DNA from: Anaerolineales bacterium
GTDB lineage: Bacteria > Chloroflexota > Anaerolineae > Anaerolineales > DRMV01
Direction of reading: 5' to 3'
Length of the DNA: 64,000 nucleotides
Assembly: GCA_027053355.1 (NCBI GenBank)
Contig: JALUDX010000195.1
Span: 846 to 64,845, forward strand
In this document: positions 4,393-62,788 of the stretch, piece by piece
Layout of the letters: each line of letters opens with the position of its first letter
How positions within the stretch are numbered: the first letter of the stretch is position 1
Made by a program: the position numbers and the translations under genes
The notes under the pieces: model-generated
What the model was told of the DNA's origin: nothing
Seen by the model: only the letters and a program-made list of their open reading frames with translations
The model's database searches: none

Positions 4393-4413
4393 GGCGGTTT
4401 CTCTATTTCGGAG

Positions 4414-4619
4414 GTAACTATTCAGCCACAAGGAAATAGATCACGGATAACACGGATTTTTAGGTCGCCAAGGTCGCCAAGATGACGCCAAGGCCGCCAA
4501 GAAGTGATGGCGAGCGTGGGCTTTTTAGTGTTTTTCGCCCAATCTGCGCTCATCTTTGGGTCTCTTTCGGCGTAATCTGCGAAATCTGTGGTTTCTTCTT
4601 GCCAAGGCTGAACAGTTAC
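4414..4619 (+). mobile_element. type-A MITE-like element (206 bp), complete
   Basis: TIRs GTAACTATTCAGCC / GGCTGAACAGTTAC. Flanking 8-mers are TTTCGGAG (4406..4413) and TTTTGGAG (4620..4627), matching 7/8. About 90% identical by eye to the copy at 54005..54210. No ORF. Confidence 0.8.
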
Positions 4620-4689
4620 TTTTGGAGATAGGCGCCCCACAAGGCCTGATGGGGACGAAAAGGGGCGCCTGAGCCCAGGCAACGCCCAA

Positions 4690-4737: not shown

Positions 4738-4926
4738 CTACGGATAGCCACGGATGCTCACAGATTTTCAGGTCGCCAAGTCACGCAAAGGGACACAAAG
4801 ACACAGAGAGGGATACGCTAAAATGACGCCAAGCGCCAAGGCGTTGCTAGTATTTTTCGCCCAATCTGTGCCAATCTGTGAAATCTGTGGACGTTTTTCT
4901 GCGAAATCGGCGTAATCTGCGGTTTA
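4738..4926 (+). repeat. type-A-like repeat fragment lacking both TIRs
   Basis: Shares CGGATAGCCACGGAT, GACGCCAAG/GCGCCAAG words, TTTTTCGCCCAATCTGTG and AATCTGCGGTTT with type A but has no GTAAC..GTTAC ends. Confidence 0.55.
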
Positions 4927-7136: not shown

Positions 7137-7316
7137 GTCACCATTCAGCCGTCGAAAAACTGCCCGCGGCTGAACACGGATAATGACGGATAGCCGCGGA
7201 TTTCGGGGCGCCGAGGGCATCAAGAGAAGCACCGGAGTAACCAAGCACCATTTACCTCAACACCTCCCGCCTTCTGTGGTTTACGGTCTGCGTCATCCGG
7301 AGGGCTGAACAGTCAC
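7137..7316 (-). mobile_element. type-B MITE-like element (180 bp), inverted orientation, internally shortened
   Basis: Ends GTCACCATTCAGCC / GGCTGAACAGTCAC. The interior is the reverse complement of the 19226..19458 copy (GGATAATGACGGATAGCCGCGGATTTCGGGGCGCCGAGGG). Flanking 8-mers CCCCAGGC / CCGCAGGT match 6/8. Confidence 0.7.
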
Positions 7317-9706: not shown

Positions 9707-10231
9707 TTATTTGCTCACCCGCAACTCGTCCTTCACCCGCCAACGCCGCGACCAGCGCACCAACACCAACCCCACGATGAGCACGAAAACCAGGCCGCCG
9801 TGGGTCATCATTTCCCGCAATTGCAGGCTCACCGTGTCGGGCGAAGTGTGCTCGATGGACATCTGCGCGCCGATGAGTAACAACTTCCGCACGCTGGAGA
9901 TGATGCCCACGAACAAAAACGGCTCCAAAGGCACGGTGTGTTCGCGCAAATACGTCAACACCGTCCAGAGCAACTCCAGCACGATCATCACCAGCAAAAT
10001 ATCGTGCACCGCGGCCAACACCGCGTTCTGGTAATGGTCAGGTGAAAACATGGGCGGGAAAATCTGCGCCGCGTGGTACAACAACACCATCGCGATGCCC
10101 AGCAGCAAAATACCCGCCGCGCACTGCAACAGGTCGTCCGCGTTGGAAAGCCAGCCCAGCAGCCGCCGCCGGGTGGCGAGAAAACCGCTGGCTGGCTTAT
10201 CCGCAGGGGGAAAATCCGAAGGCACGCTCAT
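9707..10231 (-). CDS. PsiE-like (phosphate-starvation-inducible E family) membrane protein
   Basis: 174 aa with four helices. The segment LVMIVLELLWTVLTYL...LEPFLFVGIISSVRKLLLIG parallels the core of E. coli PsiE as recalled. Confidence 0.5.
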   Translation of the reverse strand: MSVPSDFPPADKPASGFLATRRRLLGWLSNADDLLQCAAGILLLGIAMVLLYHAAQIFPPMFSPDHYQNAVLAAVHDILLVMIVLELLWTVLTYLREHTVPLEPFLFVGIISSVRKLLLIGAQMSIEHTSPDTVSLQLREMMTHGGLVFVLIVGLVLVRWSRRWRVKDELRVSK

Positions 10232-10380
10232 GGCTCCTCCTCGGTGCTTGGGTGCTTGGGTGTTTGGGAACTCGGGTACTTGGGCGCCTCTCTTGGCGGC
10301 TGGCGTTTCTGTGCGCCTCCGCGCCTATCCGCCATCATCCGCGCTTGTCCACGGGCCATTTCCCAAAGGCCGCACCGTTA
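10232..10380 (+). repeat. type-B element right half (left end missing)
   Basis: GGTGCTTGGGTGCTTGGGTGTTTGGG microsatellite-like module, then CCGCGCCTATCCGCCATCATCCGCGCTTGTCCACGGGCC, ending in a degenerate right TIR GGCCGCACCGTTAC (10367..10380). Confidence 0.6.
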
Positions 10381-10436
10381 CGATTATAATAGAAACTGCG
10401 CCCAAACGACCGATTCCCGTCCCCAAAGAGAACACC

Positions 10437-11363
10437 ATGCCCACTCGCCACGCGGTAAGCATCAGCCTGGGTAGCGCCAAGCGCGACAAAAAGGTGCGCG
10501 TGCAGTTCGGCGACACCACCGTGATCATCGAACGCATCGGCACCGACGGCGACGTCGAGGCCGCCAAGCGCCTCTACCGCTCATTGGATGGCAAAGTCGA
10601 CGCCTTCGGCATGGGCGGAGTAGATCTGTACATCCGGGTGGACGACCACAAATACCCGCTGCGCGCCGCGCACCGGCTCATCGAAGGGGTGAGCAAAACC
10701 CCGGTGGTGGACGGGCAAGGCCTCAAACACACGTTAGAGCGTCGCGTCTTCTCCCTGGTGCGGCCGCAACTGCGCGCGCCGTTGCACTTTCGCCGCGCCT
10801 TTATGCCCTTAGCGCTCGACCGGGTAGGGCTGGCGCGCGCGGTCGACGAAATCGCAGACGACGTCGTGTTCGGCGACTTCATGGTCGGGTTGGGGCTGCC
10901 CATTCCGGTGCGCGGGCTGACCACGTACATCCGCTTACTCAAACGCTTCTTGCCGCTGGTGGGTTTCTTCCCCCTCAGTATGCTGTTCTACGGCAGCGAC
11001 GGCGTCGAATTCCAGCCCAAATACGAAAAATACTGGGCGCAAGCGGACTTGATTGCTTGCGATTTCATGTTCATGAAAAAATACATGCCGCCGCACCTGC
11101 TCGAAGGCAAGACCTTGGTCACCAACACCACCACCGAGAGCAACGCCGCCTTTTTGCGCGCCCACGGCGTGCACCTGCTCATCACCACCACCCCCCGCTA
11201 CGACGGTCGTTCGTTCGGCACCAACATGATGGAAGCCGCGCTCACCGCGTACGCGGGCAAAGGCCGTCCCCTGACCCTCGAGGAACTCAACGCGCTGATC
11301 GACGAACTGGATCTTCGCCCCACGGCCACTTACCTGCAAGAGGAATCCGCACCGTCCGTCTAA
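10437..11363 (+). CDS. conserved protein of the family often annotated quinate 5-dehydrogenase (function unverified)
   Basis: Start at MPTRHAVSISLGSAKRD. The pattern SISLGS.KRD...IERIGTDGD...LDGKVDAFGMGG.DL matches that family as recalled. No Rossmann motif seen. Confidence 0.45.
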   Translation: MPTRHAVSISLGSAKRDKKVRVQFGDTTVIIERIGTDGDVEAAKRLYRSLDGKVDAFGMGGVDLYIRVDDHKYPLRAAHRLIEGVSKTPVVDGQGLKHTLERRVFSLVRPQLRAPLHFRRAFMPLALDRVGLARAVDEIADDVVFGDFMVGLGLPIPVRGLTTYIRLLKRFLPLVGFFPLSMLFYGSDGVEFQPKYEKYWAQADLIACDFMFMKKYMPPHLLEGKTLVTNTTTESNAAFLRAHGVHLLITTTPRYDGRSFGTNMMEAALTAYAGKGRPLTLEELNALIDELDLRPTATYLQEESAPSV

Positions 11364-11371
11364 GGATAGGC

Positions 11372-14300
11372 TCATTCGGGCAGGCGATAGCCAAAATAGC
11401 GCACCAACAGCGCGGCCATCTCCGCGCGGGTAAGGGAAGCATCGGGGTGGTAAGTGCCGTCGGGGTATCCTGAAGCCGCGCCTTCCCAATGCAGTTGCTC
11501 GATCCAATCGGCTGCCCAATGGCCGGCAATATCCGAAAAACTGTACGCGGCAGCCGCGGGCGGGGTGTAATCAGGGCCGTGCAAAGAACGCAAGAGCAGC
11601 ACAGCCACCTCAGCCCGGGAGACCGGCGCTTCGGGGCGATACGTGCCGTCGGGATAGCCGTGCACCAACCCTTCGTCTGCCGCCTCCTCGATCCAATCGG
11701 CTGCCCAGTGCCCCACCACATCGGGGAAGGTGTTTCCTGCAGCCGGGGGCGGCGCGTAATCGCCGCCATGGATCGCCCGCAAAAGGAAGACCGCACTTTG
11801 CGCCCGGGTCACCTGGTCTTGGGGATGATACAACCCATCCGGGTAGCCAGAGGTCACCCCTTCGGCGACCAGGCTTTCCACATACGGCCATGCCCAATCG
11901 TCGGTGGGCACATCAGGGAACGTGGGGTAGGGCGAAGGGCCCTCGCTTTCCCCCGCGGCAGAAAGACAATCGGGGTCATAGGGAAAATCCACCCAGCCGT
12001 CGTGGTCGTTATCCTGGCCGTCGAAACAGGCAGCCAGCGTGACGCCCGCGGTGCTGTGGACGTCGGTGAGGGGGGTATCGAAAATATCGGGTGCGGCCAC
12101 CAGCAAGGGAGTGTAGCCCCAATGCACCATTTGCTGCAATTCTTCGGCGGTGGGCGTGTAGCCGTTACGATAGGCGATGACCGCCGCGCCGGGGTTGAGG
12201 TACTGCATCAGCAGAGGCGGCGCGGTCAACGGCGTGCCTGTCCAGCGGCCTGAAGACCAGGGGTTGTCGGGCTGGAGGAAGAGCGCGGCGCGGGTGTGCA
12301 GATAATCGCTCATCGCGCCTTCGACCCACAACGCCACGTCGGGCGCCTGGGCTTTCAGGTGCGCCAGCCAGGGCAGTTGTTGGAGCGGCGCCATGTTGGG
12401 GAAGGCGTCCAGCCCCAGGGCGTGAGCGCCGCGCGCCACGGCCAAGGCGAGTTCCTGGTCGGCAAAGGCCGTGTCGTCGGCATCGTTGGGGTCGAGGGGC
12501 GGCACCGCGTCGGGGTTCCACTGTCGCGGCTGGGGAACCTGGCCTGCCCGCCCCCACCAGAAGCCCAAATCAATGCCCTGCTCGCCGAACTGGGCGAGCG
12601 CGTCCAACGAATTGGCGACAGGCGAAAGCAAATCGCTCATGAACTGGGGCGGCAGGTTGGTGTCGCAATACGGATGTTCGCCGGGCACCACGGCCTCGGG
12701 CGGGCACTTCCAAAACTGCCCCGAAAACCCCCACAGCATGGCCCGCGAATACCCCGCCTCGCGCAGGCGCTGCACATAGGTGGAAACAAAACCCCGGTTG
12801 TCATGGTCGGGGTTGGGGCCGTCGAGGCCGTATTTGTCGGTGCGCAAGGCCCAGTTGTGGCCGCGCAAATTCCACGCCAGCACGGTTTGTTCGTCAGGCT
12901 CGCTGCCTTCCTCGCAATCGCCCGCGTTCAGGCAGGCCTGGTACTGTTCGTAAGCCACCGTGCTATACGAAAGATTGAGACCGCTGATCGGGCGCAGATC
13001 CCGAGGAGTAATCTGCCGCTGACCGCCGTACAGACCGTCGAAGAAAGCCCGATAGGGGTAAAGGGTCAGCAACCAGGCCCGCGGGGGCGCAAAGCGCAGC
13101 GTCAGGGTGAGGGTCAAGGTAGCGCCGGGCGGCAGGGTTTGGTTCCCCACCCCAAAGTCGTAAACATGGCTCCAGTGCCCCTGCCAATACCACACCCGCA
13201 TTCGCGGCTGCAGGCCGGTGTGGGGATAATCGACCAGCAGGGCCGACCCGGCGGCAAAATGGCCGTCGTGCGCCACGATCACCGGCGCGTACGCGCTGGG
13301 GTAAGGGAAGTCGTCTTCGCCATTGACCTCGAAATACCCCCAGCCGCGGAAATTGCCCTGCCCGTCCTGGAAGGTATCTTCGGAAAGGCTGCGAAGGTGC
13401 AAGTAGGGGTAAGAGCCGGTGGCCAAAATCTGCAGGGTGTCTTGCTCATCGTGGGCGGCATAAGTCAAGCCGTCCACATACAAGTCGGGGAGGGGTTGCG
13501 GCGCGTCGGAGGGGTTGGTGATGGTGTAGACCACGTTCACTCCGGCAGGCGCTTCTTCCAGGCTATACGAAAGCGAGAGCGCACCGTCGCTGTGGTCTTC
13601 CCAAAAGCGTTCGCCCTGAAAAGCCTCGCGCAACACCTGGCCGTCGCTGCGGGTGGCGGTGAACGAAGGGTCGCCCGCCTGGTTGGTGAAAATGTCGATG
13701 GTGACGTCGTCGTACAACCGCTGTGCGTCGGAAGCCGATGCTTCGAAATCGTAGACCACATCAGCATCCGCGGCAGCGCCGAAATCGCTCTTGAACATCA
13801 CCCGCCGGCCGTCGGGCGAGGGCACGGGCATGGGCGATTTGAGGTAATTGGCCGCGCTGCTAAAGTGATGGCCGAAATACTCCACGGTCTGGCTGCCGTC
13901 TAACTTCACCGCTAAAATCAGGCCCCCGCGGTCGGGGTCGGTGCTCACGTAAGCCCACCCGGGGCGCAAAATGTTGCGGCAAGAGAGGTGCGCGTCGCCC
14001 ACACCGAAATCATCCGCGGTGTGAATCACGTCGGCCTGGTCGCGGTCCAGATGATAGGCGTTGATGGTGCCGTTTTCACCCCAAAACTGCACGTACACCT
14101 CGCCCCCCGCGGGGGTAAAACACAAATCGCCGTGGTTGCCGTAGCGCACCAGGCGACGGAGGAAGGCCATGTCGGTGGTGCGGTAAGCCTCTACGCCGTA
14201 ATGGCCGTCGAAGGGCTGCACGTTCCACGGGGGGCCGCTGTTCCAATTGATGACCACATACCGCCCCGATTGCGACACCGAAACCCAGTCCACGTGTTCG

Positions 14301-15013
14301 GGCATACTGCCGCCATCGCCCCACGCGCCGGGGAAGGTGCGCACCGTGATCACCTGACGGTGTTGCAAATCGAAGACCACCACGTCCAGATCCGCGCCCT
14401 TTTTCCCCACCAAGGCGACGAAATGGTCATGGATGTCTATGTTGCCTTCGCCGGGCCCCAACGCCACCCGGTCATAGCCGGTCAGGCGCCCCAAGACGTC
14501 GTAAGCGCCGGTGACGACGTCGTAGGTCTGAATGGTGCCATCGTCACGGAAACTGTAAAGCAGGTGCGGGTCGGTATTCGCCCAAACCGTGGGGTAGACA
14601 TCGCCCGGCAGCCAGCGCACCCGTTGGTGGGTCTGAGCATCGTAAATGGCCACCGAATAAAAGCGATACAGCGTGCCGTCTGCGTTCCAGGGCTGAATTT
14701 TGGCGTATTCGTGGTGGGGATACCATTCCGCCTCTGCATCGTAAGCGGTGATGCGCTGGAGGATAGTTTGGGTGGAAGGGTCTTCCACAAAGCCGCGCAA
14801 GGACGGCAAGGCCGGGGCAGAGGCTACGATGCGTTGGTAAGTGGTGTCTTTGGGATAACCGGGGAACGCGCCCTGCCCCCAACGGGGGGCGGGCGGGGGC
14901 ACCGCGGCCCGCGCTCGCGGCGCAGCCGCGCCCCAGGCCGCGGCCAGCACCACCCCCGCGAGCAGCAAACTCAGCCCCTGATGAAGCAGACGTCGCCAAC
15001 GCACAAGGCACAC
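11372..15013 (-). CDS. very large secreted SLH-domain surface protein
   Basis: 1213 aa with a signal peptide (LLLAGVVLAAAWGAAAPRARA). N-terminal beta-propeller-like region, an unassigned roughly 550-aa middle region, a DNDHDGWVDFPYDPDC Ca-binding-like motif, and three C-terminal SLH repeats (FPDV..W...YV/WIE....G...GYPDGTY.P...VTRAE.A..L.R). Confidence 0.8.
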   Translation of the reverse strand: MCLVRWRRLLHQGLSLLLAGVVLAAAWGAAAPRARAAVPPPAPRWGQGAFPGYPKDTTYQRIVASAPALPSLRGFVEDPSTQTILQRITAYDAEAEWYPHHEYAKIQPWNADGTLYRFYSVAIYDAQTHQRVRWLPGDVYPTVWANTDPHLLYSFRDDGTIQTYDVVTGAYDVLGRLTGYDRVALGPGEGNIDIHDHFVALVGKKGADLDVVVFDLQHRQVITVRTFPGAWGDGGSMPEHVDWVSVSQSGRYVVINWNSGPPWNVQPFDGHYGVEAYRTTDMAFLRRLVRYGNHGDLCFTPAGGEVYVQFWGENGTINAYHLDRDQADVIHTADDFGVGDAHLSCRNILRPGWAYVSTDPDRGGLILAVKLDGSQTVEYFGHHFSSAANYLKSPMPVPSPDGRRVMFKSDFGAAADADVVYDFEASASDAQRLYDDVTIDIFTNQAGDPSFTATRSDGQVLREAFQGERFWEDHSDGALSLSYSLEEAPAGVNVVYTITNPSDAPQPLPDLYVDGLTYAAHDEQDTLQILATGSYPYLHLRSLSEDTFQDGQGNFRGWGYFEVNGEDDFPYPSAYAPVIVAHDGHFAAGSALLVDYPHTGLQPRMRVWYWQGHWSHVYDFGVGNQTLPPGATLTLTLTLRFAPPRAWLLTLYPYRAFFDGLYGGQRQITPRDLRPISGLNLSYSTVAYEQYQACLNAGDCEEGSEPDEQTVLAWNLRGHNWALRTDKYGLDGPNPDHDNRGFVSTYVQRLREAGYSRAMLWGFSGQFWKCPPEAVVPGEHPYCDTNLPPQFMSDLLSPVANSLDALAQFGEQGIDLGFWWGRAGQVPQPRQWNPDAVPPLDPNDADDTAFADQELALAVARGAHALGLDAFPNMAPLQQLPWLAHLKAQAPDVALWVEGAMSDYLHTRAALFLQPDNPWSSGRWTGTPLTAPPLLMQYLNPGAAVIAYRNGYTPTAEELQQMVHWGYTPLLVAAPDIFDTPLTDVHSTAGVTLAACFDGQDNDHDGWVDFPYDPDCLSAAGESEGPSPYPTFPDVPTDDWAWPYVESLVAEGVTSGYPDGLYHPQDQVTRAQSAVFLLRAIHGGDYAPPPAAGNTFPDVVGHWAADWIEEAADEGLVHGYPDGTYRPEAPVSRAEVAVLLLRSLHGPDYTPPAAAAYSFSDIAGHWAADWIEQLHWEGAASGYPDGTYHPDASLTRAEMAALLVRYFGYRLPE

Positions 15014-15020
15014 TCCTTTT

Positions 15021-17435
15021 TCACGGCAAACCCAGCACCCGAACCAGCAGCGCCGACATTTCGGCGCGCGTCACGGCCTGGTAGGGGCGGAAGGTGCCGT
15101 CCCCGTAGCCGGTGACAAAGCCTTCCTGGTGCAGGGCTTCGATCCAGTCCGCACCCCAGTAGTTCGCGATGTCCGAGAAACTGTACGCACTCACGTGGGG
15201 CGGCGTATAGTCTGCGCCGTGCTCTGCCCGCAGCAGGAACACCGCCAGTTCACCGCGGCTCAGGCTCGCGTCGGGGCGATAGGTGCCGTCGGGGTAGCCC
15301 AAGGTGATGCCGTCGTTGCGCAGCGCGGCGATCCAATCTTCAGCCCAGTGGCCGGCCGTATCGGGGAACGCGGGCTCCACATCAGGTGGTGTGAAGGATT
15401 GGGGATAGTGCATGGCCCGTTCCAAAATGGCTGCGGCCTCGCCGCGCTTGATGCCCTGGTCGGGGTGGAAGGTGCCGTCGGGATAGCCTTCTACCACGCC
15501 GTCGGCCCACACGCTGCCAATCCAGGGGAAGGCCCAGTGTTCCACCGGCACGTCGGAGAAGGGCAAAAAGACCACGGTCTGCAGGCCGTCTTCTTCCACC
15601 CCCACGAAGAGATAGCCGGCGCGGCGGGCAATGGCCACAGCCCGCCCCGCGGTGGGGAAATAGCCAACTTCGACGGGCGCGGCGGGGTCTGAAATATCCA
15701 TCGCCCACACGCCGCCCTCGCCCGCGGCCAGGTAGGCATAATGCCCCGCCACGGTGAGCGCCCGCGCCTCGCCCAAGGTGGCCGCGGAGCCCGCAAAACC
15801 CGGGTGTTGCGGGTCGCTGACGTTCAGCACCTGCAGGCCGTCGCTGCCATCGGCTACAAAGGCATAATCGCCCACCACCACCGTTTGCCAGGCCCAGCCG
15901 TCGGTGTCGTAGGCGCCGATTTCCTGGGGGTGGGCAGGGTCGGAGACGTCGACGATGTGCACCCCGGCCTCTCCGGCGCTCAGGTACACCAAGTTCCCCA
16001 CCACGGTGACGCCCACCACGTCGCCAGGGGCCTCCAAGGCACCCACTTCGATGGGGGAAGCGGGGTTGCTGAAGTCTACCACCCGCAGACCGCCGCCCGC
16101 GCCCGCGGCCACGTAGACCAAAGCATCCTGAACGGCCACTGCCCGTACCCACCCCGGCGCGTCGTAGAACCCCAATGCCTGGGGCGCATCGGGGTGGCTG
16201 ACGTCCACGGCCCATACGCCCTTGCCGTCGGCCACGTAAACCCGGCCCTCGCCGGCCGCGGTCACGCCCAGCCCCCGCCATGGCTGCGTGACACTGCCTT
16301 CGGCCACGAAGCGGTTGGGCGGGTGGAACGAAAGCACCCGCAGGCCGGGCGAATTGTCGGTCAGGTAAAGGTAATTGCCCGCCACGGCCAGGCCCATCCC
16401 CGCGCCCAGGCTGGGCAGCACGCCCACCCGTTGCGGCGCGGTGGGGTTGGTCGCATCGACGATCTGCAGGCCCTCGTCCCATTCCGCCAGGTAAACCGTG
16501 TGCCCTTGTGCGGCCACGGCTGCCGCGAAGTCGGGCAGGTCGAGGGTGCTGCGCAGGGAGGGGCGGGCGGGGTCGTGGACGTCGAAAATGCGCAGGCCGT
16601 CGAAAGAATCGGCCACGTAGGCGTAGCCATCGACCAAAACCACCCGCTGCGCCCAAGCCGTACCGCCGGTGGAGGCCACGGCCTGAGGGTGAGCGGGGTC
16701 GCTGATGTCGATCACTCGGAAGACGTCCGCATCCAAAACAAAAGCATAGGGCGACGCCAAGGCCAAATCTTCCACCCAGCCGGGGGTGTCGTAAATGGCC
16801 AAAAGGCGCGGGGCCGTGGGATTGCTCACGTCGACCACCACCACGCCGACGTCGCCCGCGGCGACGTAAACCGTCTGTCCGTCCACCGCCACGTGGGCCG
16901 CGTTGGGGATGCCCATGGTCGCCAGCCGCTGCGGCTGGCTGGGGTTGCTGACATCGACCACGCCCAGGCCAAAGTTGGGGCCGACCACGTAGGCTTTGTC
17001 GCCGGCCACGGCCACGCCGGTGGTCAGGCCCGTGGTGGTGTCGCGGCCCAAGGGGGTCAGCGTATCGCCCTGCCGCAGGAGCACTTGCAGCCCGGCTGCG
17101 CCCAGCGCGGCGTAGACGTGGTCGCCGCTAATGGCCAGGTCTTTGACCACTCCGGCCAGCCGCGGGGAACGCCCCACCACCTGGGGTGCGGCAGGGTCGG
17201 CAGCGTCGACTACCAAAATTTGCGCGCCCATGCCCAAAAGAATGCGGCCGTCGGCCCACACGATGGCTTCAGAATCTCCGCCCGTGTGCGCCACCGACTG
17301 GATGTGTTCGCCGCCGCTTGCTTCGGCCTGGGCACGGGGCGCCTGCGATGCCCGCGCGGCGGTCCCCCGACTGCCCCAAACCAAAGCCAACATGAGAAGA
17401 AGAAAACACCAAGGGAGATGTTTGCGCTGCATCAT
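15021..17435 (-). CDS. secreted LVIVD-repeat beta-propeller protein with three C-terminal SLH domains
   Basis: Signal peptide, then more than 10 repeats of the type AYVA....GL.V.DVS.P..P, and three SLH repeats at the C-terminus. ATG at 17435 or 17432 preferred over the TTG at 17444 (GGAGG just upstream). Confidence 0.8.
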   Translation of the reverse strand: MMQRKHLPWCFLLLMLALVWGSRGTAARASQAPRAQAEASGGEHIQSVAHTGGDSEAIVWADGRILLGMGAQILVVDAADPAAPQVVGRSPRLAGVVKDLAISGDHVYAALGAAGLQVLLRQGDTLTPLGRDTTTGLTTGVAVAGDKAYVVGPNFGLGVVDVSNPSQPQRLATMGIPNAAHVAVDGQTVYVAAGDVGVVVVDVSNPTAPRLLAIYDTPGWVEDLALASPYAFVLDADVFRVIDISDPAHPQAVASTGGTAWAQRVVLVDGYAYVADSFDGLRIFDVHDPARPSLRSTLDLPDFAAAVAAQGHTVYLAEWDEGLQIVDATNPTAPQRVGVLPSLGAGMGLAVAGNYLYLTDNSPGLRVLSFHPPNRFVAEGSVTQPWRGLGVTAAGEGRVYVADGKGVWAVDVSHPDAPQALGFYDAPGWVRAVAVQDALVYVAAGAGGGLRVVDFSNPASPIEVGALEAPGDVVGVTVVGNLVYLSAGEAGVHIVDVSDPAHPQEIGAYDTDGWAWQTVVVGDYAFVADGSDGLQVLNVSDPQHPGFAGSAATLGEARALTVAGHYAYLAAGEGGVWAMDISDPAAPVEVGYFPTAGRAVAIARRAGYLFVGVEEDGLQTVVFLPFSDVPVEHWAFPWIGSVWADGVVEGYPDGTFHPDQGIKRGEAAAILERAMHYPQSFTPPDVEPAFPDTAGHWAEDWIAALRNDGITLGYPDGTYRPDASLSRGELAVFLLRAEHGADYTPPHVSAYSFSDIANYWGADWIEALHQEGFVTGYGDGTFRPYQAVTRAEMSALLVRVLGLP

Positions 17436-17500: not shown

Positions 17501-17750
17501 GTAATTGTTCAGCCTTGGGAAAATAGGCCGCGGATGAACGCGGATCATTCCGGATAGCCGCGGATTCAAGCGCGGCGTAGGGCAGGGCGTCATCCCGCCC
17601 AGCCCAAGGGAGGCGAGACAGTGTGCCGCCAACACAGGCGCGCAAAGCAAAGAGAGATTCTGTGTTTTCTGTGCCTTCTCTGTGGCTTCTGTGTTTTTCT
17701 GTCTGCGGCATCGAGATTTCTCTTTTGTTTGCACTGAACGTTACATTTAC
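17501..17750 (-). mobile_element. type-B MITE-like element, inverted orientation
   Basis: Left end GTAATTGTTCAGCC. Canonical-like right end GCACTGAACGTTAC at 17731..17744. If the element extends to 17750, the flanks ATTAGGAG (17493..17500) and ATTAGGGG (17751..17758) match 7/8. Confidence 0.65.
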
Positions 17751-17804: not shown

Positions 17805-17894
17805 CGGCCTGTGCCAATCTGTGAAATCGGTAGATGTTTTTCTGCGAAATCTGCGAAATCTGTGGTTTCTCCTCAGTCAAGGCCGAATCGTTAC
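17805..17894 (+). repeat. type-A right-half fragment
   Basis: GTGCCAATCTGTGAAATCGG...CTGCGAAATCTGCGAAATCTGTGGTTTCTCCTC...GGCCGAATCGTTAC parallels the right third of type A. Confidence 0.55.
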
Positions 17895-18109: not shown

Positions 18110-19168
18110 TTACGGCACCGGCACCACCGCGTCGTAATTGTAAAACCAGTTGTACGCGTAATACGGCGTCACCAGGCTCTGCAAACGAATGGCAATGCGC
18201 TGTTGATTGGCCAACGCCGGCGGGATGGAGAACTTGGTCTCTTTCAGGTGCCCCTGGTCATCGGTCTCGACCGTGGCCACCTGCCAACCGCCCACGCCGT
18301 AAGTGCCGTAATAATTCATCAGCACCGCGTATTTGTCGTTGGGCGGGAAGTTGTGCCCCTTGATGACCACGAAATCGTTGCGCTCCACCTGGGCGATGAA
18401 GAAATAAGGATACCCCGGCGGGCCTACGACCGGCGTTGCGCCACCGCTTCCGCCGCTGCCGGTGGTGTTGTTGTAAAACCAGTTATAGGCGTAATAATGG
18501 GTGGTGGGGCTTTCCAAACGGATGGCAATCCGATACTGCCCTGCCAACGCCGAAGGAATGGAAAACGTGGTCTGACTCAAAGCGCCGTTAGCGTCGGTGG
18601 TCACCGTCGCCACCTCCCAACCGCCAATGCCATAGGTGCCGTAGTAATTCATCCGCACCACGTAAGTGTCGTTGGGCGGGAAATTGTGCGGCGCGATGGT
18701 TACCTCCTGATCCTGCTTTACCGAGGCGATCGAAAAAGTGGGATAGCCCACGTATCCGCTCCCTCCGCTGCCGCCAGCGGCCACGTTGTAAAACCAGTTG
18801 TAGGCATAGTAACCGCTGGTGGGGCTTTCGAGGCGGATGGCGACGCGCGACAAATGCGCCCAAATCGGGGGGATGTTGAAGGTCGTGCTGCTCAAATGAC
18901 CTTGCGCGTCCGTGGTCACCGTGGTGACGTAACAGCCGCCAATGCCATAAGTGCCGTAAGGCCCCATGTAGACGTTGAACGTGTCGTTAGGGGGGAAGTT
19001 ATACGGCTGAATGGACACCGTATTGCCCGGATCAACGGACGTGATGGTGAAACACGGGTAACCGCAATAGGCGGCAACAGCCGAATGGATGAAAAAGCCG
19101 CTGCTCAACACCAGGGCCAACACCAGCATCACCACCCACAGTTTGGAAAAACGAACCGAGCGTTGCAT
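18110..19168 (-). CDS. secreted protein made of three tandem ~105-110-aa repeats (unknown family)
   Basis: Signal peptide and strong RBS AGGAGG. Each repeat carries YP.F.I..V......I....NFPPND.....M..YGTYG.GG..V.TV.TD..G.L....F.IP......RIAIRL.S.....YAYNWFYN, separated by G/S linkers. Confidence 0.75.
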   Translation of the reverse strand: MQRSVRFSKLWVVMLVLALVLSSGFFIHSAVAAYCGYPCFTITSVDPGNTVSIQPYNFPPNDTFNVYMGPYGTYGIGGCYVTTVTTDAQGHLSSTTFNIPPIWAHLSRVAIRLESPTSGYYAYNWFYNVAAGGSGGSGYVGYPTFSIASVKQDQEVTIAPHNFPPNDTYVVRMNYYGTYGIGGWEVATVTTDANGALSQTTFSIPSALAGQYRIAIRLESPTTHYYAYNWFYNNTTGSGGSGGATPVVGPPGYPYFFIAQVERNDFVVIKGHNFPPNDKYAVLMNYYGTYGVGGWQVATVETDDQGHLKETKFSIPPALANQQRIAIRLQSLVTPYYAYNWFYNYDAVVPVP

Positions 19169-19225
19169 TGCACCCTCCTTTGAAAATCAAAGAGAATCGC
19201 GAAGGCTGGTTGCAGCCAATCTATG

Positions 19226-19458
19226 GTGACTGTTCAGCCTCTACGGATGACGCAGGCAGAAAACCACAGAGAACACAGAAAGCGGGAAGTCAAGGCGTGA
19301 TGCGGGATGCGGGAAGAGGTGAGGTGCTAAAGGGTTGGTTGGTTGGTTGGTTGGTTACTCAGGCACCTCTCCTGACGCCCTCGGCGCCCCAAAATCCGCG
19401 TCTATCTGCCATCATCCGCGTTCATCCGTGGGCTGTTTTCCAAAGGCTGAACAGTTAC
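19226..19458 (+). mobile_element. type-B MITE-like element (233 bp), complete reference copy
   Basis: TIRs GTGACTGTTCAGCC / GGCTGAACAGTTAC. Perfect 8-bp direct repeat AATCTATG at 19218..19225 and 19459..19466. Contains (GGTT)6 at 19333..19356. No ORF. Confidence 0.88.
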
Positions 19459-19517
19459 AATCTATGTACAGATTACATCAAAAAGCCCAAAAATGCAAGG
19501 GGGATAACTGAGATCCG

Positions 19518-20701
19518 GACATGAGTTAGGACAAAAAAGGGAACCTCCTGTAAATTGTTTTATAGAAAAAACACCACACACAAGGAGGTTCCCTATGTAC
19601 AAGTATAAACGAATTTCCTTGGAACGCTTCGCCCATTACTTGTTTGATAACACTCATGAGGCACAACACGCCGCTGAGATTCTCGCCGCTATCTTGCACG
19701 CTCGCTCAGCACGCTTGACTGAGATCGCTGCCAAAATGCACGGCTCTATGGATGCCGCCTATAAACGCTTGCAACGCTTTCTGCAGCGCCACGACCCACG
19801 CACTGCCTTGTGGCGTCTTTTACCCGATGATGCTCCCTTTGTGTTGGCCGATGTGACCGAGATCCCCCGCCCTCAAGCCTATAAAACCAACTATGTCGGC
19901 ACCTTGAAAGACGGCCACACCAAAGGGTTTTGGGTAATGACATTCGCCACCCCTTATCGGGGGCGGGCCATACCCTGCGGTTTGCTCACCTTTTCCTCCG
20001 CCACCATCGCCCAAAAAGACGGTTCCCGCAACTTGGTGCATCAACGGGCTTTTGAGAGTTTGAAAGACCTGTTGGGTGAGCGGCCGGTGGTTTTAGATCG
20101 GGAATTCAGTTATTCGGGCCTGCTCCAATTTTTGACAGCAGCGGGCGTCCATTTCGTTATCCGTCTGCGACTGGGCTCCCGCCCGCCCAAGTTCTTTGAT
20201 GACGAAGGGAGCGAGGTCAAACTGAACATTGCCCGAGGGCAACGGGTGGTGTACCGCAACCTGTGGTACAAAGGCGAAGTGCAGGTGCAGGTCATTGGCG
20301 AATGGAGAGCGGGCCAACCCGAGCCGCTATGGGTGATCACAGACTTGGCGCCGGAGCAAAGCTTGGCCTACTACAAACAACGGATGAAGATAGAGGAAAG
20401 CTATCGTGATCTGAAAAGTCTCTTGGGGATGGAGCGGGTGATGAACAAACGGCAGGAATACATGGAGAAGGCACTTGCATTGGTAATGTTGGCGTATGCA
20501 ATTGCGCTGATGGTAGGCGAGAAACTTCGCGATGCAATGTTTGGCAATGCTAAAAGGACGAGCAAGTGGCGGCGCTATTCGGGAGCCTTTATTTTGTTGA
20601 AGGATTATTGGTCAATACCAACCCGCCTTTACAAAGAGGCGTCTAAACAAGCCTTGAGCGCCTTTGCTGATTTGGTTCTACCTCATGTCCTAACTCATGT
20701 C
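19518..20701 (+). mobile_element. IS4-superfamily-like insertion sequence (~1.18 kb)
   Basis: 16-bp perfect terminal inverted repeats GACATGAGTTAGGACA (19518..19533) / TGTCCTAACTCATGTC (20686..20701) bracket a single DDE transposase gene. Visibly lower G+C than the flanks. No clear target duplication found. Confidence 0.8.
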
Positions 20702-20704
20702 TGA
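19595..20704 (+). CDS. DDE transposase (IS4/PF01609-like)
   Basis: 369 aa with candidate catalytic D in LADVTEI, D in VLDREF and E in RMKIEESYRDLKSLLG (the R..IEE.F/Y..LK signature of DDE_Tnp_1). RBS AAGGAGG. Confidence 0.8.
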   Translation: MYKYKRISLERFAHYLFDNTHEAQHAAEILAAILHARSARLTEIAAKMHGSMDAAYKRLQRFLQRHDPRTALWRLLPDDAPFVLADVTEIPRPQAYKTNYVGTLKDGHTKGFWVMTFATPYRGRAIPCGLLTFSSATIAQKDGSRNLVHQRAFESLKDLLGERPVVLDREFSYSGLLQFLTAAGVHFVIRLRLGSRPPKFFDDEGSEVKLNIARGQRVVYRNLWYKGEVQVQVIGEWRAGQPEPLWVITDLAPEQSLAYYKQRMKIEESYRDLKSLLGMERVMNKRQEYMEKALALVMLAYAIALMVGEKLRDAMFGNAKRTSKWRRYSGAFILLKDYWSIPTRLYKEASKQALSAFADLVLPHVLTHV

Positions 20705-20756
20705 ACTTCAGGCGCAACATCGCTAAAACGTACCCCCAATCCTATTCGCGGCCTAT

Positions 20757-21677: not shown

Positions 21678-21816
21678 GTAACTGTTCGACCTCAAAGAGA
21701 AACTACGAATAACGCAGACAGAAAACCATGTTAACTCCTTAGCGCCCTAAACTCCGCGTCTATCCGTCATCATCCGCGCTCATCCGCGGGCTGTGTTCCA
21801 AAGTTTGAACATTTAC
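21678..21816 (+). mobile_element. short type-B MITE-like element (139 bp)
   Basis: Ends GTAACTGTTCGACC / GTTTGAACATTTAC. The interior matches both arms of type B with the central part missing. No TSD detectable. Confidence 0.65.
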
Positions 21817-27450: not shown

Positions 27451-30400
27451 ATGTTCGGCGCTGAAATATTGACCTTGGGCATCGCCCTGGCACTGATCGG
27501 CGTGAGCCTGTTGCTCATTGCCGGGGGATTGACGCGCGTGCAGCAGACCGCGACCGCCGCTTTGGCCTCGCCCCTCACCGCGCCGCAGCCGGAGGGAGGG
27601 GAATCTTCCACCACTGAAGAAGGGGTTATCGTGGTGTTGCAAGGTGGGCGGGTGCACTATCTCAACGCCCGAGCCCGCCAATGGTTTGGGCTTTACCCCA
27701 ACGACCAACCTTCGTTGGAACTCCTGGCGCGGCGTGTCCGCCCGCAAGACGATTTCTTCCGCCTTTGCACCCAGCCGAGCAAAGCCCGCCTCACCTTAGC
27801 CACCCAGACCTTAGAAGCCGCCTCTTACGCAGTGCCCTACCAACAACAAAAAGCCATCGTGTTGACCTTGCGCCCTCTGCACCTGCTGGTGTCTAAAAAA
27901 TCGCCCGAACTGCGGGCTTCGACTACCGAGGCGCTGGAAGTTTTCTCTGAACTCAGCCAGCAAGTCGGCGCCCACCTGCACCTGCCCAGCGCCCTCCAGG
28001 CCGCAGTGGCAGCGGTCGACCGTCTACTTCCCTCGGATGTTCTGGAAATCACCCTTTGGGATGAGACCCACACCTTCCTCATCCCTTATCGTTACACCAG
28101 CGCTGGAGCAGAAATCTTCCCCGAAAATGTTAGCGAGCGCTACGAACCAAACCAAGGCTTGACCGGTTACCTCGTTCAAAATCGGCAACCTTTGCTCATC
28201 CGTGATCTGGAACAAGAAATGCCCGTGCCCCCTGCAGTCGACCGCCGCCGTTACCCAGTGCGCGGCTACCTGGGTGTGCCCTTGCTGTTCAACGATGAAG
28301 TGATCGGCACATTGGAAGTCGCCTCCTTCGCCCCCAACGCCTACCACACTGCCGACCTGGAACTGCTCACCTTGCTGGCCGGCCCCATCGCGGTAGCCCT
28401 ACGCAACGCGCAGGTGTTTAGCCAAACCCAGCGCCAGTTGCAAGAACTACGCAGCCTGGCCGAGATCGCCGCCGCCACCGGCGAAGCCAAAGACCCGCAA
28501 CGGCTCATCGAACGCCTGGTGCACACCGTGGCGCCGCTGCTCGCCGCGGAAATCGTCGGCTTTCTGCTCTACGATGAGGCCCACCGGCTGCTGCAGGCTC
28601 AAAAACCTTTTGTTGGCCTCCCCGAAGGGTTTGTCAGCGTGTATCGGGCCTTCATCCCCGCGGGGAGCCCCGCCGACCGGCTGCTGCAGCGCGGCGAACC
28701 CCTGCGCACCGACGACGCCAGCGAAGACCCCCAATGGCAAGCCCTGGGCCTGGCCGACCTGAGCCGCACCGCCGGCATCCGCAGCAGTGTGCTCTACCCC
28801 CTGTGGACCGGTAGCCGCTTTTTAGGCTTTTTGCAGGTCGCCAACAAACCTCGCCAAGCGCCCTTCACCAACGCCGACATCCTGGCCTTGGCCCACGTGG
28901 CCGCGCAGGTCACACCGGTGTTAGAAAACGCCCTCCTCTTCCGTGAAACCCGGCACCGCGCCCAACGGGCTGAAGCCCTGCGGCGGATTGCCAGCCTGGC
29001 CGCCTCGCACGCCACCCTCGACGAAGCCTTCAAATTTTCGGTTTTGGAATTGGCCCACCTGGTCGACGCGCGCTACGCCGCGGTGCTCCTGTTCGACGAG
29101 GAACAAAATCGCCTGCTGCCTCACTTACCTTCCGTGTATGGCATTCCTCCCGCAGTAGCAAGGCGCATCGGCGCCATCCCCGGCCATCGCCCCGACTTTC
29201 ACTTTACGGTAACCCGCAGCGGGCGACCCTTCCTTTCTAATGACATTTCGCAAGACAAACGGGTAATTTCAGCCTACGAAACCATTTTGAACGCCCTGCC
29301 CAACATCCGCTCAGCCATGGTGGTGCCGCTACGCGTGGGGCAAGAAAGCGTAGGCGAAATTCTATTAGGGCATCCCGAAGCCGACCATTTCGACCGCAAC
29401 GACCTGCAAATGGCCCTCACCACCGCTGCCCAAATGGCCTTAGTGGTGGAACGGGAGCACCTGCTAGCCCAAAGCGATGCCAGCCTACGACAACAGGTTG
29501 AAGAACTACGGACAATGGCGCGGATAGGCCGTGAACTTTCACTGCTTTCTTCGCAACAACAGTTGTTGGCCTACGCCTACCAACAAATGGCTGAACTCAC
29601 CCAGGCCGATTGTGGGTACGCCTTTTTGCTCACCGCAGAAGGGCAACCTGGCCTGCGCGTCGGTGACACCGGTGCTGTCGGGCTGCACCCCTTAGAGCGT
29701 TCGGCCATTCAAGCGCAAACCGCGCAGCGCGTCGACGATTTTCAGAACGAGACCGCCTTCCCTCAGCCGCACGAAGAAGTACGCGCCGCATTGGTGCTCC
29801 CTTTGGTGTTCCACAACCGCGTGCTGGGTGTGGCCCATCTCCACGCCAAAAAAGCCTACCACTTTGATGCCTCTCGGCAGCGTCTGGCCAGCCTGCTGGC
29901 ACAGCACGTGGCAGCAGCCTTAGGCGCAGCGCAGCAAACCGAAACCCTGCGGCAAGAAAACCAACGCCTGCAACGCCAAATCCACGCGCTGCAACGCCTG
30001 CGCCAGTTTCTGGCCCAACACGCGCCCCTCGAACACCCTTTCGCCGCGCTCGACGACCTGGTAACCGAAATGCAACATGCTACGGGCTTCGACGCTGTGC
30101 TCCTGGCCCGATACGAACCCACGACCGGTATGCTGCAACCGGTAACCGCACCGGGCTTTGCCCAGGCTGACCCTCTGCCTCTCGATAGTCTCAACCTGCT
30201 GCTGGAAGACCGCTTCCACCATGATGGCGTGTACTTCATCCCCGCGGAGGCTCGCCCCCCTCTGCCACACAACCTGACCCTGCCCGTGCCCGAACGCCCA
30301 TTGCCGCGACTCGACACCCCCCGCGGCTGGCAGGCCGAAGACATCCTCCTCGCGCCCCTACGCACTGACCAAGGCGAGCCCTTGGGCGTACTGCTGTTGC

Positions 30401-41223: not shown

Positions 41224-41290
41224 ACCTGTTTGTAACCGTTCAGCCTCGAAGAGACGCTACGGATAACGCAGGCAGAAAACCACAGAAGAC

Positions 41291-41682
41291 GTAATGCATA
41301 ATCAACCATGATAGTTGGTTTAGGCCTTTTGCAACTTGGCGCCCAAATTTTTGATCTCTCCCTACCCCGCTCCGGCGAGGCCTCGCCTTCGCTCAGCCTG
41401 CCGGAGCCGCCCCCTTTCCTCCCTTACTTGCACTTTGACAAATTGTTACGACAATCCGAGGCTATGGCCTGGGCCGGTCTCCCCTCTCCCTCTGGGAGAG
41501 GGGCCGGGGGTGAGGGCGTAAAAAGCCCATTGGCTTAGCGCCCTCACCACTCCCCCGGACGCCGCCCAGCGGCGTCCGGGGGAGTGGTGAGGGCGAGCAA
41601 GGTGTAATGCTGTTTCATGGCATGGCAGAGTTATTGGAATATTGCTTGTCAACCTCGTTTTCGGAGCAGGGCAGGTAGTTAC
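41291..41682 (+). mobile_element. nested non-coding element (392 bp) with GTAA...TTAC ends and perfect 8-bp TSD
   Basis: Flanked by CAGAAGAC at 41283..41290 and 41683..41690. Starts GTAATGCAT and ends GGTAGTTAC. Carries G/C-rich hairpin modules. Confidence 0.8.
41539..41595. repeat. perfect 27-bp-arm inverted repeat (hairpin/cruciform)
   Basis: CGCCCTCACCACTCCCCCGGACGCCGC - CCA - GCGGCGTCCGGGGGAGTGGTGAGGGCG. Every arm position is complementary. Confidence 0.9.
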
Positions 41683-41840
41683 CAGAAGACACAGAAAGCG
41701 GGATGTGGGGAACGGGAAGTGGAATGCGGCCGTTGGCGTCATTTTGGGGCCTCGGCGCCCAAAAATCCGCGTCTATCCGCCATCATCCGCGTTCATCCGT
41801 GGGCTGTTTTCCAACCCAACAAGGAATGGCCTGACGACCC

Positions 41841-47224: not shown

Positions 47225-47391
47225 GGCTAACGCAAAGGCGCGCAACAAGCAAAGCACGCAAAGAAGTCAACGCAAGGACGCGAAAGAAGCACAGAAGCAC
47301 AGAGGATGCCGCCAAGCGGACGAAAGAAAAACGCATCTCGCCTCCCGCATCCTGTTTTCTGTGTTTCCCTCTCCGCAATCCGCACAGTTAC
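47225..47391 (+). repeat. degenerate intergenic repeat fragment ending in a family right end
   Basis: CACGCAAAG / CGCAAGGACGCGAAAG / CACAGAAGCACAGAGG words as in 4775..4830. Ends ATCCGCACAGTTAC (47378..47391). Confidence 0.45.
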
Positions 47392-49526: not shown

Positions 49527-49666
49527 GGAGAAACCGCAGATTGCGCGGCTAAAAAGCGGAAAGCGAGGTGCGGAGGGATTGGGGGGTAGTTACTGGTTGC
49601 TTGGTTGGCTGGTTGCTTGGTTATCCGGGTCAGCCGCGGCCGATTTTCTCAAGGTTGAACAGTGGC
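49527..49666 (+). repeat. mosaic of repeat fragments (type-A end word, ..GGTAGTTAC end, type-B right half)
   Basis: GGAGAAACCGCAGATTGCGC, GGGGTAGTTAC, the TGGTTGCTTGGTTGGCTGGTTGCTTGGTT microsatellite-like module, and a degenerate right TIR GGTTGAACAGTGGC (49653..49666). Confidence 0.5.
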
Positions 49667-53946: not shown

Positions 53947-54004
53947 GTCACCGTTGAGTCTCAAAGAGACTCTACGGATTGCGCAGGCGGAAAATCACAC
54001 AAGA
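53947..54004 (+). repeat. type-B left-arm fragment abutting a type-A element
   Basis: GTCACCGTTGAGTCTCAAAGAGACTCTACGGATTGCGCAGGCGGAAAATCACAC parallels 41232..41285 and 21678..21728. Confidence 0.6.
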
Positions 54005-54210
54005 GTAACTATTCAGCCACAAGGGAATAGACCACGGATAGCACGGATTTTTAGGTCGCCAAGGTCGCCAAGATGACGCCAAGACCGCCAAGAAGCGAGG
54101 ACGAGCGTGGGCTTTTTAGTATTTTTCGCCCAATCTGTGCTAATCTGTGAAATCTATGGTTGTCTTTCTGCATAATCTGTGGTTTCTTCTTGCCAAGGCT
54201 GAACAGTTAC
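54005..54210 (+). mobile_element. type-A MITE-like element (206 bp), complete
   Basis: TIRs GTAACTATTCAGCC / GGCTGAACAGTTAC. Same length as, and colinear with, 4414..4619. No TSD (flanks ACACAAGA vs GATAGGTC), possibly because it sits in a mosaic. Confidence 0.8.
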
Positions 54211-60200: not shown

Positions 60201-60375
60201 GTATTCGGCAGCCTCAGGGAAGGGAAACCGCAGATTGCGCAGAAAAAATTTCACAGATTCGCCCCGATGAGGCGAAAACGTCACAAGGCACGGATCTCGC
60301 TCATGTCTTTCGGTGAAACAGTGTTCGAGAAATCCGTGTCGTCCGTGGTCTATTCCCTTGTGGCTGAACTGGGGT
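60201..60375 (-). mobile_element. diverged type-A-like element, inverted orientation
   Basis: GTATTCGGCAGCC...GGAAACCGCAGATTGCGCAGAAAAAATTTCACAGATTCGCC...CCGTGTCGTCCGTGGTCTATTCCCTTGTGGCTGAACTGG is colinear with the 62515..62719 copy but has a shorter centre and degenerate ends. Confidence 0.6.
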
Positions 60376-60684
60376 TCGCAAACGCCACGCCTGAGCGTTT
60401 TGTCCGCGGAATTACTTCCACGGCGTTGTGGCTCAGGTCGTCAATTCCCCCTGATGGTGGAGGGCCGGGGTGTGGCATCCCCGGGAGGGCATCCGCCGAT
60501 CCTTCGATTTTCCCGCCCGGTGGCTCCGAGCGGTTAGCCTTGCCTCGCGACAAGGAACCCTCATCCTCGTCACCCGCGCGCACGCGGGCCTGGCGCTCTT
60601 CCCTCCGATGGGTTGTCGTTTGAGATGGCACCTCCTGAAGGGTGGTTTGCGGGGTGATTGTATCACAATTCGCGGCGCTGGCCG

Positions 60685-62422: not shown

Positions 62423-62514
62423 AACACCTCCAAAGGGGAACCACGCCTGCCGCCGCTCGTCAGGCGCCAAAGCCCGAGGCGGGGCGCTTACTTTTCATCT
62501 ATTGTACCCCAAAA

Positions 62515-62719
62515 GTGGCCGTTCAGCCCCGGCAAGGAGAAACCACAGATTGCGCAGAAGAACATCCACAGATTTCACAGATGAACACAAATTGGGCGAA
62601 AAACACTAAAAAGCCCACGCTCGCCCTCGCTTCTTGGCGGTCCTGGCGTCATCTTGGCGACCTTGGCGACTTAAAGATCCGTGTTATCCGTGGTCTCTTC
62701 CTCGCGGCTGAAGGGTTAC
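62515..62719 (-). mobile_element. type-A MITE-like element (205 bp), inverted orientation, complete
   Basis: Ends GTGGCCGTTCAGCC / GGCTGAAGGGTTAC. Perfect 8-bp direct repeat CCCCAAAA at 62507..62514 and 62720..62727. The interior is the reverse complement of 4414..4619. Confidence 0.85.
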
Positions 62720-62788
62720 CCCCAAAAGCAATGGCTCACCCTGAGCCGAAAAACATCTACCGATTATCGAGCCCACCCAAAAGCCGTT

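Follow-up and report, generated by a model that had tools for sequence, protein, structure and literature searches.

The 64-kb window analysed here (the whole stretch of 64,000 nucleotides from an Anaerolineales bacterium) contains a short non-coding element at 19226-19458 that raises two questions: whether it is a transposable element in its own right, and which transposase moves it. The window has a G+C content of 62%, and its genes include those for an SLH/LVIVD surface protein and a DUF4388-MglA pair. A glmS ribozyme is also present, and a single ORF of 2318 aa occupies 27451-34407 on the plus strand. The length, termini and perfect flanking repeat that the sequence-only reading had given for the 19226-19458 element were all confirmed (Table 1). 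An inverted-repeat search returned a pair (19223-19240 / 19444-19461) that spans the ends of this element.

The 14-bp terminus GTAACTGTTCAGCC was strongly enriched in the window. When at most two mismatches were allowed, it matched 11 times, compared to 0.32 matches expected from dinucleotide-preserving shuffles (~30-fold enrichment), and this count was equalled in 0 of 100 shuffles. When at most three mismatches were allowed, 22 matches were obtained versus 3.7 expected. All-against-window BLAST resolved the copies into two subfamilies, A (~206 bp) and B (139-250 bp), which have only their ends in common. Within each subfamily, copies at separate loci share the same full-length structure at 84-90% identity. 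All bounded copies are short (139-250 bp), and their interiors consist of short repeats. Summed, the copies comprise roughly 2.6 kb, or ~4% of the window.

The elements with the same termini that had been proposed at 4414, 7137, 17501, 21678, 54005 and 62515 were verified as bounded copies, and 60201-60375 as a degenerate copy. Two right ends had been offered for the copy at 17501. Its 8-bp flanks matched at 7/8 positions with the end placed at 17750 but at 4/8 with the end at 17744, and the former was retained. The locus at 41232, previously described as a left end only, is accompanied by the corresponding right subterminal arm (41750-41814). Three of the proposed right-end fragments (10367, 17881 and 49653) lie within stretches that match full copies in BLAST (10318-10381, 17809-17894 and 49601-49666), whereas 47378-47391 reads merely ...CACAGTTAC and was discarded. 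The copies had also been described as all intergenic. On a rough, GC3-based gene map, nearly all of them do fall between the chosen ORFs, but the fragment 10318-10381 lies within the stop-to-stop ORF 10035-11363, and two copies (7137-7316 and 62515-62719) extend 40-65 nt into the ends of ORFs; these three overlaps concern ORF models with uncertain true starts or ends. The ORF 19168-19524, which runs across the 19226-19458 element, is spurious.

Several other features were observed at these loci. Microsatellite runs of the (GGTT)n type occur within or beside subfamily B copies (19335-19357 and 49601-49623). The stretch 41300-41750, between the arms of the disrupted copy, contains G+C-rich palindromes (e.g., CCTCTCCCTCTGGGAGAGGGGCCGGGGGTGAGGGCG) and a 40-nt perfect hairpin at ~41560-41610; the palindromes look like another repeat family. 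On the minus strand, a glmS ribozyme at 60380-60608 (Rfam RF00234, 39.7 bits) is followed by the degenerate copy 60201-60375 and then by the glmS start codon at ~60189 (MCGIVGY...). This copy therefore lies within the leader that is left on the mRNA after self-cleavage of the ribozyme.

Table 1. Copies of the element family in the window, and four autonomous elements reached by protein homology (last four lines; locus given with the position).
Feature	Position	Termini and flanking repeats	Remarks
Subfamily A MITE, 206 bp	4414-4619 (with flanks 4406..4627)	left TIR GTAACTATTCAGCC; flanks TTTCGGAG / TTTTGGAG, 7/8	
Subfamily A degenerate remnants	4744..4925	no recognisable termini	
Subfamily B MITE, 180 bp	7137..7316	flanking repeat 6/8	
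Subfamily B end fragment	10318..10381	degenerate terminus	CGGAT-repeat arm
Subfamily B MITE, 250 bp	17501..17750	flanks ATTAGGAG / ATTAGGGG, 7/8	right terminus +6 bases
Subfamily A end fragment	17809..17894	terminus present	CAGAT-repeat arm
Perfect 8-bp target duplication of the 19226-19458 MITE	19218-19225 + 19459-19466	AATCTATG	
Subfamily B MITE, 233 bp	19226-19458	starts GTGACTGTTCAGCC, ends GGCTGAACAGTTAC	
Short subfamily B MITE, 139 bp	21678..21816	flanking repeat absent	between DUF4388 and MglA-like GTPase genes
Composite/disrupted subfamily B copy	41232..41814		left end 41232-41291; ~460 bp of unrelated sequence inside
Right subterminal arm of disrupted copy	41750-41814	without terminal 14-mer	97% to 19226-19458
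Subfamily B end fragment	49601..49666		
Subfamily B left-end fragment	53947..54008		abuts the 54005-54210 MITE
Subfamily A MITE, 206 bp	54005..54210	without flanking repeat	88% identical to 4414-4619
Subfamily A degenerate copy	60201..60375		between glmS ribozyme and glmS start codon
Subfamily A MITE, 205 bp	62515-62719 (with flanks 62507..62727)	perfect duplication CCCCAAAA	inverted relative to 4414-4619
Autonomous element	L204, 3385-4963	terminus GTAACTGCTCAGCC; perfect target duplication GTTTTCCT	
Autonomous element	L205, 9926-11490	terminus GTAACTGCTCAGCT; perfect target duplication CTTTGCTG	
Autonomous element	L214	termini GTAACTGCTCAGGC / GTAACTGCTCAGCC; perfect target duplication GACGGGCC	
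Autonomous element	L217	termini GTATCTGCTCAGGC / GTTACTACTCAGGC; perfect target duplication CTTTTGTT	

Further copies were collected by a scan of one genome per species with the query GTAACTGTTCAGCCTTKG, which returned at least 71 loci. Among the matches listed, these loci belong mostly to Chloroflexota MAGs (Anaerolineales, Caldilineae, Dehalococcoidia and Ardenticatenales). A bounded copy was defined as a plus-strand terminus followed by a minus-strand terminus within 1.2 kb, and the window and the at least 71 scanned loci contained 43 such copies. The 8-bp flanks were identical in 11 of the 43 bounded copies and matched at 7/8 positions in 9 more, whereas none of the 129 control flanks, shifted by 10-30 bp, matched at more than 5/8 positions. 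The 8-bp target duplications claimed in the sequence-only reading are thus present above chance (20/43 at 7/8 or better). The perfect duplications are relatively A+T-rich, with ~40% G+C (12 perfect duplications counted) versus 62% G+C for the genome. Two window copies, 21678 and 54005, have no duplication.

An empty orthologous site was found for the 21678-21816 insertion. The spacer between the DUF4388 and mglA-like genes is 49 bp long in the MAG locus L018, whereas in the window it consists of 45 bp plus the 139-bp element. This is the single clean case; two further orthologous-site alignments, between the window and L031, were too diverged to be read cleanly. Synteny with the window, at ~80% nucleotide identity, was observed in two Anaerolineales MAGs. 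Because of the target duplications, the full-length structure shared among loci and the empty orthologous site, we conclude that these short non-coding elements are real MITEs, as had been proposed. The family looks old in the window and shows no sign of a very recent burst, since the identity between the window copies is 84-88% and several of them are truncated or lack duplications.

The same data bear on whether the copies could instead be full-length ISs that decayed independently by internal deletions, rather than members of a family that moves in the form of short elements. Decay of this kind would account for the end fragments that stand alone (10318-10381, 17809-17894 and 49601-49666) and for the disrupted copy 41232-41814. 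However, the same short full-length structure recurs across loci and species, as the 206-bp subfamily A structure of 4414, 54005 and 62515 is found again in L067. The copies also carry their own target duplications, they do not have the length needed for a transposase gene, and tblastn with IS66-type transposases detected no trace of such coding sequence inside them. Independent decay is therefore extremely unlikely as an explanation of the family.

Between their termini, the MITEs contain arrays of the heptamer CRCRGAW. In 56 ends, this heptamer was found 145 times reading inward and once reading outward, compared to ~3 expected by chance in each orientation. The heptamers recur approximately every 10 bp, with peaks at positions 29/30, 38/39, 48, 59/62, 72 and 82 at both ends, and two to six of them were present inside each terminus of the sampled copies, including 4414-4619, 17501-17750 and 19226-19458. 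One arm carries mostly CGCGGAT and the other CACAGAT, CGCAGAT or CACAGAA. As a result, the two arms form a long imperfect inverted repeat. This repeat folds back into one extended, imperfect hairpin, in which the variable position of the heptamer forms a G:U or G:T pair. The spacing of ~10 bp is close to one turn of the helix and, together with the strict polarity, suggests that the heptamers may be subterminal protein-binding repeats.

The hairpin also brings into consideration a structured RNA family, or REP/BIME-like palindromes, that spread by other means (e.g., by a RAYT-type HUH enzyme) or were kept for an RNA function. Each element indeed folds as one long imperfect hairpin with G:U pairs between the CGGAT and CAGAT arms, the minimum free energies of the longer copies were 1-4 sd below those of 15 mononucleotide shuffles, and one copy is situated within the glmS leader. 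In contrast, the 8-bp duplications and the empty site show cut-and-insert transposition, and the stability edge of one strand over the other, compared as a possible indicator of RNA function, did not follow a consistent pattern from copy to copy. The Rfam 15 covariance models gave no match on any copy at the gathering threshold, and two stretches that were searched with E values up to 1 gave no credible match either. REPs are not known to leave target duplications. They are described as 20-40 bp long with GTAG/CGTC heads (PMC3733652), and a REP/BIME identity was rejected for the present elements, which are 139-250 bp long and have 8-bp duplications. An origin as structured RNA or REP-like palindromes thus appears extremely improbable compared to transposition as MITEs.

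The transposase that moves the MITEs was sought in their vicinity. An IS4/IS5-like IS of 1204 bp (19508-20711), which encodes a 369-aa transposase with a DDE_Tnp_1 domain (19595-20704), is separated by 49 bp from position 19458, where the MITE ends, and by 41 bp from the right target duplication of this MITE. Its ends had been noted as unrelated to those of the MITEs, and its 26-nt inverted repeats, CTGAGATCCGGACATGAGTTAGGACA, are indeed different; for this reason, the IS4/IS5-like IS was rejected as the partner. An exact-protein look-up of its transposase returned no record. No IS66-type transposase was detected by tblastn, with canonical and Geobacillus proteins as queries, in the 64-kb window or in L001-L071. 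Similarly, no recurrent or adjacent transposase ORF was present in the at least 71 scanned loci, where the neighbours were genes for fumarase, histidine kinases, dehydrogenases and others. The ORFs beside unpaired termini were ordinary housekeeping genes, and a tblastn match beside a terminus in L015 was weak and spurious.

The sequence-only reading had interpreted the ends and the 8-bp duplications as an IS66 signature. Single-ORF elements that encode DDE_Tnp_IS66 transposases do carry the same 14-bp ends and 8-bp duplications, which supports the assignment for the single-ORF ISBst12-type branch but not for canonical three-ORF IS66. Canonical IS66 elements have 20-30-bp inverted repeats starting with GTAAGCG and 8-bp repeats (PMC11946415). 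The MITEs read GTAACTG instead, and canonical three-ORF IS66 was rejected as their family. An example of the latter from Rhizobium phaseoli pRphaR620b (L072) is similar to the MITEs in its duplication (AGCCGTAC) and GTAA start, and it has the DDE_Tnp_IS66 domain. However, its ends, GTAAGCGCC..., have the first 4 bases alone in common with the MITEs, and the accessory genes tnpA and tnpB accompany tnpC. The transposase of this element is ~22% identical to the Geobacillus single-ORF protein.

One ISBst12-group IS has been reported on plasmid pHTA426 of Geobacillus kaustophilus (PMC8024623). The pHTA426 element (NC_006509.1, about 14107-15741) is 1635 bp long and has one ORF of 485 aa, in which Pfam identified DDE_Tnp_IS66 (218 bits), zf-IS66 and DUF6444. 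The record of this transposase (WP_011229486.1) is named 'IS66-like element ISGka4 family transposase', and the protein is 58% identical to a UniRef cluster with one source name 'IS66 family transposase ISBst12'. The ends of the element are GTAACTATTCAGCC / GTATCTATTCAGCC, with the 8-bp duplication AACTCGTC. Its left end is identical to the left ends of the window copies 4414 and 54005 (14/14) and nearly so to the MITE consensus (13/14). Unlike the MITEs, the Geobacillus element is autonomous, encodes a transposase, has no CRCRGAW arrays, resides in a Bacillota host and has no sequence in common with them past position 15. ISDge4 of Deinococcus geothermalis also belongs to the ISBst12 group, and its transposition was seen experimentally (PMC12898284; PMC8369957). 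It has the TIRs GTGACTACTCAGCA / GTAACTGCTCAGCA and an 8-bp direct repeat (PMC12898284). These TIRs match the MITE consensus at 12/14 positions, where the published 14 bp alone were compared. In contrast to the MITEs, ISDge4 is autonomous (1469 bp, 448/449-aa transposase).

With the Geobacillus protein as query, 6172 matches were obtained by homology, including a large G+C-rich cluster of ~494-aa proteins on short metagenomic contigs. The protein P0113 is encoded in a 1568-bp element with the ends GTTACTGCTCAGGC / GTTACTGCTCAGCC, and its stop codon is located inside the right terminus (GGC TGA GCAGTAAC). Metagenomes were also scanned for sites where 21-51 bp separate the MITE terminus from a conserved C-terminal motif of the transposases (G-x-P-[FY]-x-P, in reverse complement), a design by which MITEs should be excluded. 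The scan yielded at least 120 loci, of which at least 22 contain full-length single-ORF elements of 1.52-1.71 kb, with two of 2.5 kb. At both termini, these elements differ from the MITE consensus at no more than two positions, the commonest form being GTAACTATTCAGCC on either side, and perfect 8-bp duplications were found in L114 and L192. The right ends in this sample carry an ascertainment bias, as they were chosen by the terminus pattern, whereas the left ends and the elements found by protein homology are free of it. The elements in L204, L205, L214 and L217 were reached by protein homology alone, without the terminus as a query (Table 1). All routes together provided more than 25 autonomous metagenomic elements with ends 0-2 mismatches from the MITE consensus. 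The scanned transposases form approximately six lineages that are 40-60% identical to each other and to the Geobacillus protein, and the terminus is common to all of them. The likeness to the MITEs is in the termini and in the perfect 8-bp duplications (L192 10042-11619, L114 16-1706, L204 and L205) and, in the G+C-rich lineages, in the transposase stop TGA within the right terminus, which has the same bases as the MITE end. Unlike the MITEs, the metagenomic elements encode transposases of 485-520 aa.

This TGA stop lies inside the right terminal repeat (GGC TGA xCAGTxAC) in L074-L083, L149, L155, L184, L190, L192, L204 and L205. The last Gly codon is also inside the right repeat in most G+C-rich lineages, and L205 has AGC TGA. 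Therefore, the GGCTGA of the terminus is at the same time coding sequence. A transposase C-terminus as predicted from the MITE right end (...SQG* / ...SKG*) was found in 0 of the 265 retrieved transposases. Some P0113-type ISs carry a tandem duplication of the outermost 42 bp on the left, so that two left termini stand in a row (L076 671-754, L077 515-598 and L081 91-174).

When 52 ends of MITEs and 52 ends of ISs were profiled position by position, the two profiles coincided at positions 1-14 and diverged beyond, with the 14-bp terminal inverted repeat near-invariant across the MITE ends. The consensus sequences derived from these profiles are GTAACTGTTCAGCC for the MITEs and GTAACTATTCAGCC for the ISs. 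Past position 14, one short likeness was observed between the MITEs (CAGCCTTGGGAA) and the right end of the P0113-type IS (CAGCCTGGGGAAG). As there is no other resemblance past this position, the MITEs were rejected as simple deletion derivatives of any sampled IS. No phased CRCRGAW arrays were observed in any of the autonomous elements sampled, which gave weak hints, by eye, of subterminal repeats of their own (GAAT-containing motifs ~10 bp apart, L085 type). The window MITE subfamilies were absent from all autonomous-element loci retrieved, and no MITEs were found beside an autonomous copy on the long contigs that carry the related transposases P0170, P0125, P0202, P0205 and P0092.

The match of the termini to those of DDE_Tnp_IS66 elements, together with the 8-bp duplications, supports the placement of the MITE ends with the single-ORF ISBst12-type branch of the IS66 family, to which they probably belong as judged by sequence comparison. 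With a probability of roughly 0.87, a single-ORF (ISBst12-type) DDE transposase of the IS66 family, acting in trans, cuts and inserts these MITEs. This transposase would come from an IS copy located in another part of the genome or from one in a previous host, and it would recognise and bind the 14-bp terminus, the sole part common to the MITEs and the autonomous elements. Insertion by staggered cuts 8 bp apart would then duplicate 8 bp of the relatively A+T-rich intergenic target, and the heptamer arrays may serve as accessory binding sites or hairpin stabilisers. The duplications and the identity of the termini are observed directly, and it is from these that we infer mobilisation in trans.

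The MITEs could also have been moved by another family that makes 8-bp duplications (e.g., IS256, ISL3, IS1595 or IS6), with a convergent match to IS66 ends. This would agree with the absence of an IS66-type transposase near any MITE and with the restriction of the likeness between MITEs and autonomous elements to 14 bp. Against such convergence, the 14/14 or 13/14 identity to the ends of DDE_Tnp_IS66 elements is found in six lineages and by several independent discovery routes. Moreover, the typical ends of other 8-bp-duplication families, as described in ISfinder, are not known to start with GTAAC. Mobilisation by another family is thus very unlikely compared to mobilisation by an ISBst12-type transposase.

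There is a small chance that the heptamer arrays are not passive sequence. They might be multiple binding sites for an IS66-family transposase, which would make the MITEs preferred substrates, or the host might have adopted the hairpin for regulation at the RNA or DNA level, with the copy in the glmS leader (60201-60375) as an example. If the arrays are transposase sites, they would offer a way into a poorly understood transposition mechanism.

Both bacterial MITEs and the ISBst12 group are already known, and the general picture of bacterial MITEs is unchanged by these results. A literature search of partial coverage returned no description of MITEs tied to the ISBst12 group or of this MITE family in Chloroflexota. 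The useful points are the phased heptamer arrays and the fact that the terminus is so deeply conserved throughout a transposase clade of very large size and diversity. Elements with single-ORF IS66-family transposases that are 40-60% identical and come from several phyla have the terminus GTAACT(G/A)TTCAGCC in common, which makes this terminus a convenient query for finding such ISs and the MITEs that go with them. With a terminus and phased heptamers, the MITEs represent natural minimal substrates for IS66-family transposition, which has been little studied biochemically. Apart from their share of the window, in several Chloroflexota MAGs they account for a large proportion of the repeats between genes. 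Repeats of this kind fragment assemblies made from short reads and mislead gene prediction, as in the case of the spurious ORF described above.

Some further forms of the family were observed outside the window. In two MAGs, a family end lies just 3' of the gene for fumarase C and has the same orientation in both: L018 (2063-2300, Anaerolineales), which has a near-full copy, and L023 (3458-3485, Caldilineaceae), which has the 26-nt terminus alone. This common site could be a coincidence or an old shared insertion. A Dehalococcoidia MAG (L033 2059-2791) contains a 733-bp element with the same termini and the perfect duplication ACTCCGTC, and the interior of this element consists of ~8 tandem copies of a 50-bp unit (GGTGGATTCCCGCCTTCGCGGGAATGACGAGG...). 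Palindromic elements of 55-80 bp, which are approximately two copies of the terminus (GTAACCGTTCAGCC...), were found in L200 (6665-6719), L188 (1474-1529), L197 (764-819) and L112 (from 1571). As these palindromes occur in unrelated metagenome contigs, other bacteria have different MITE families with the same terminus.
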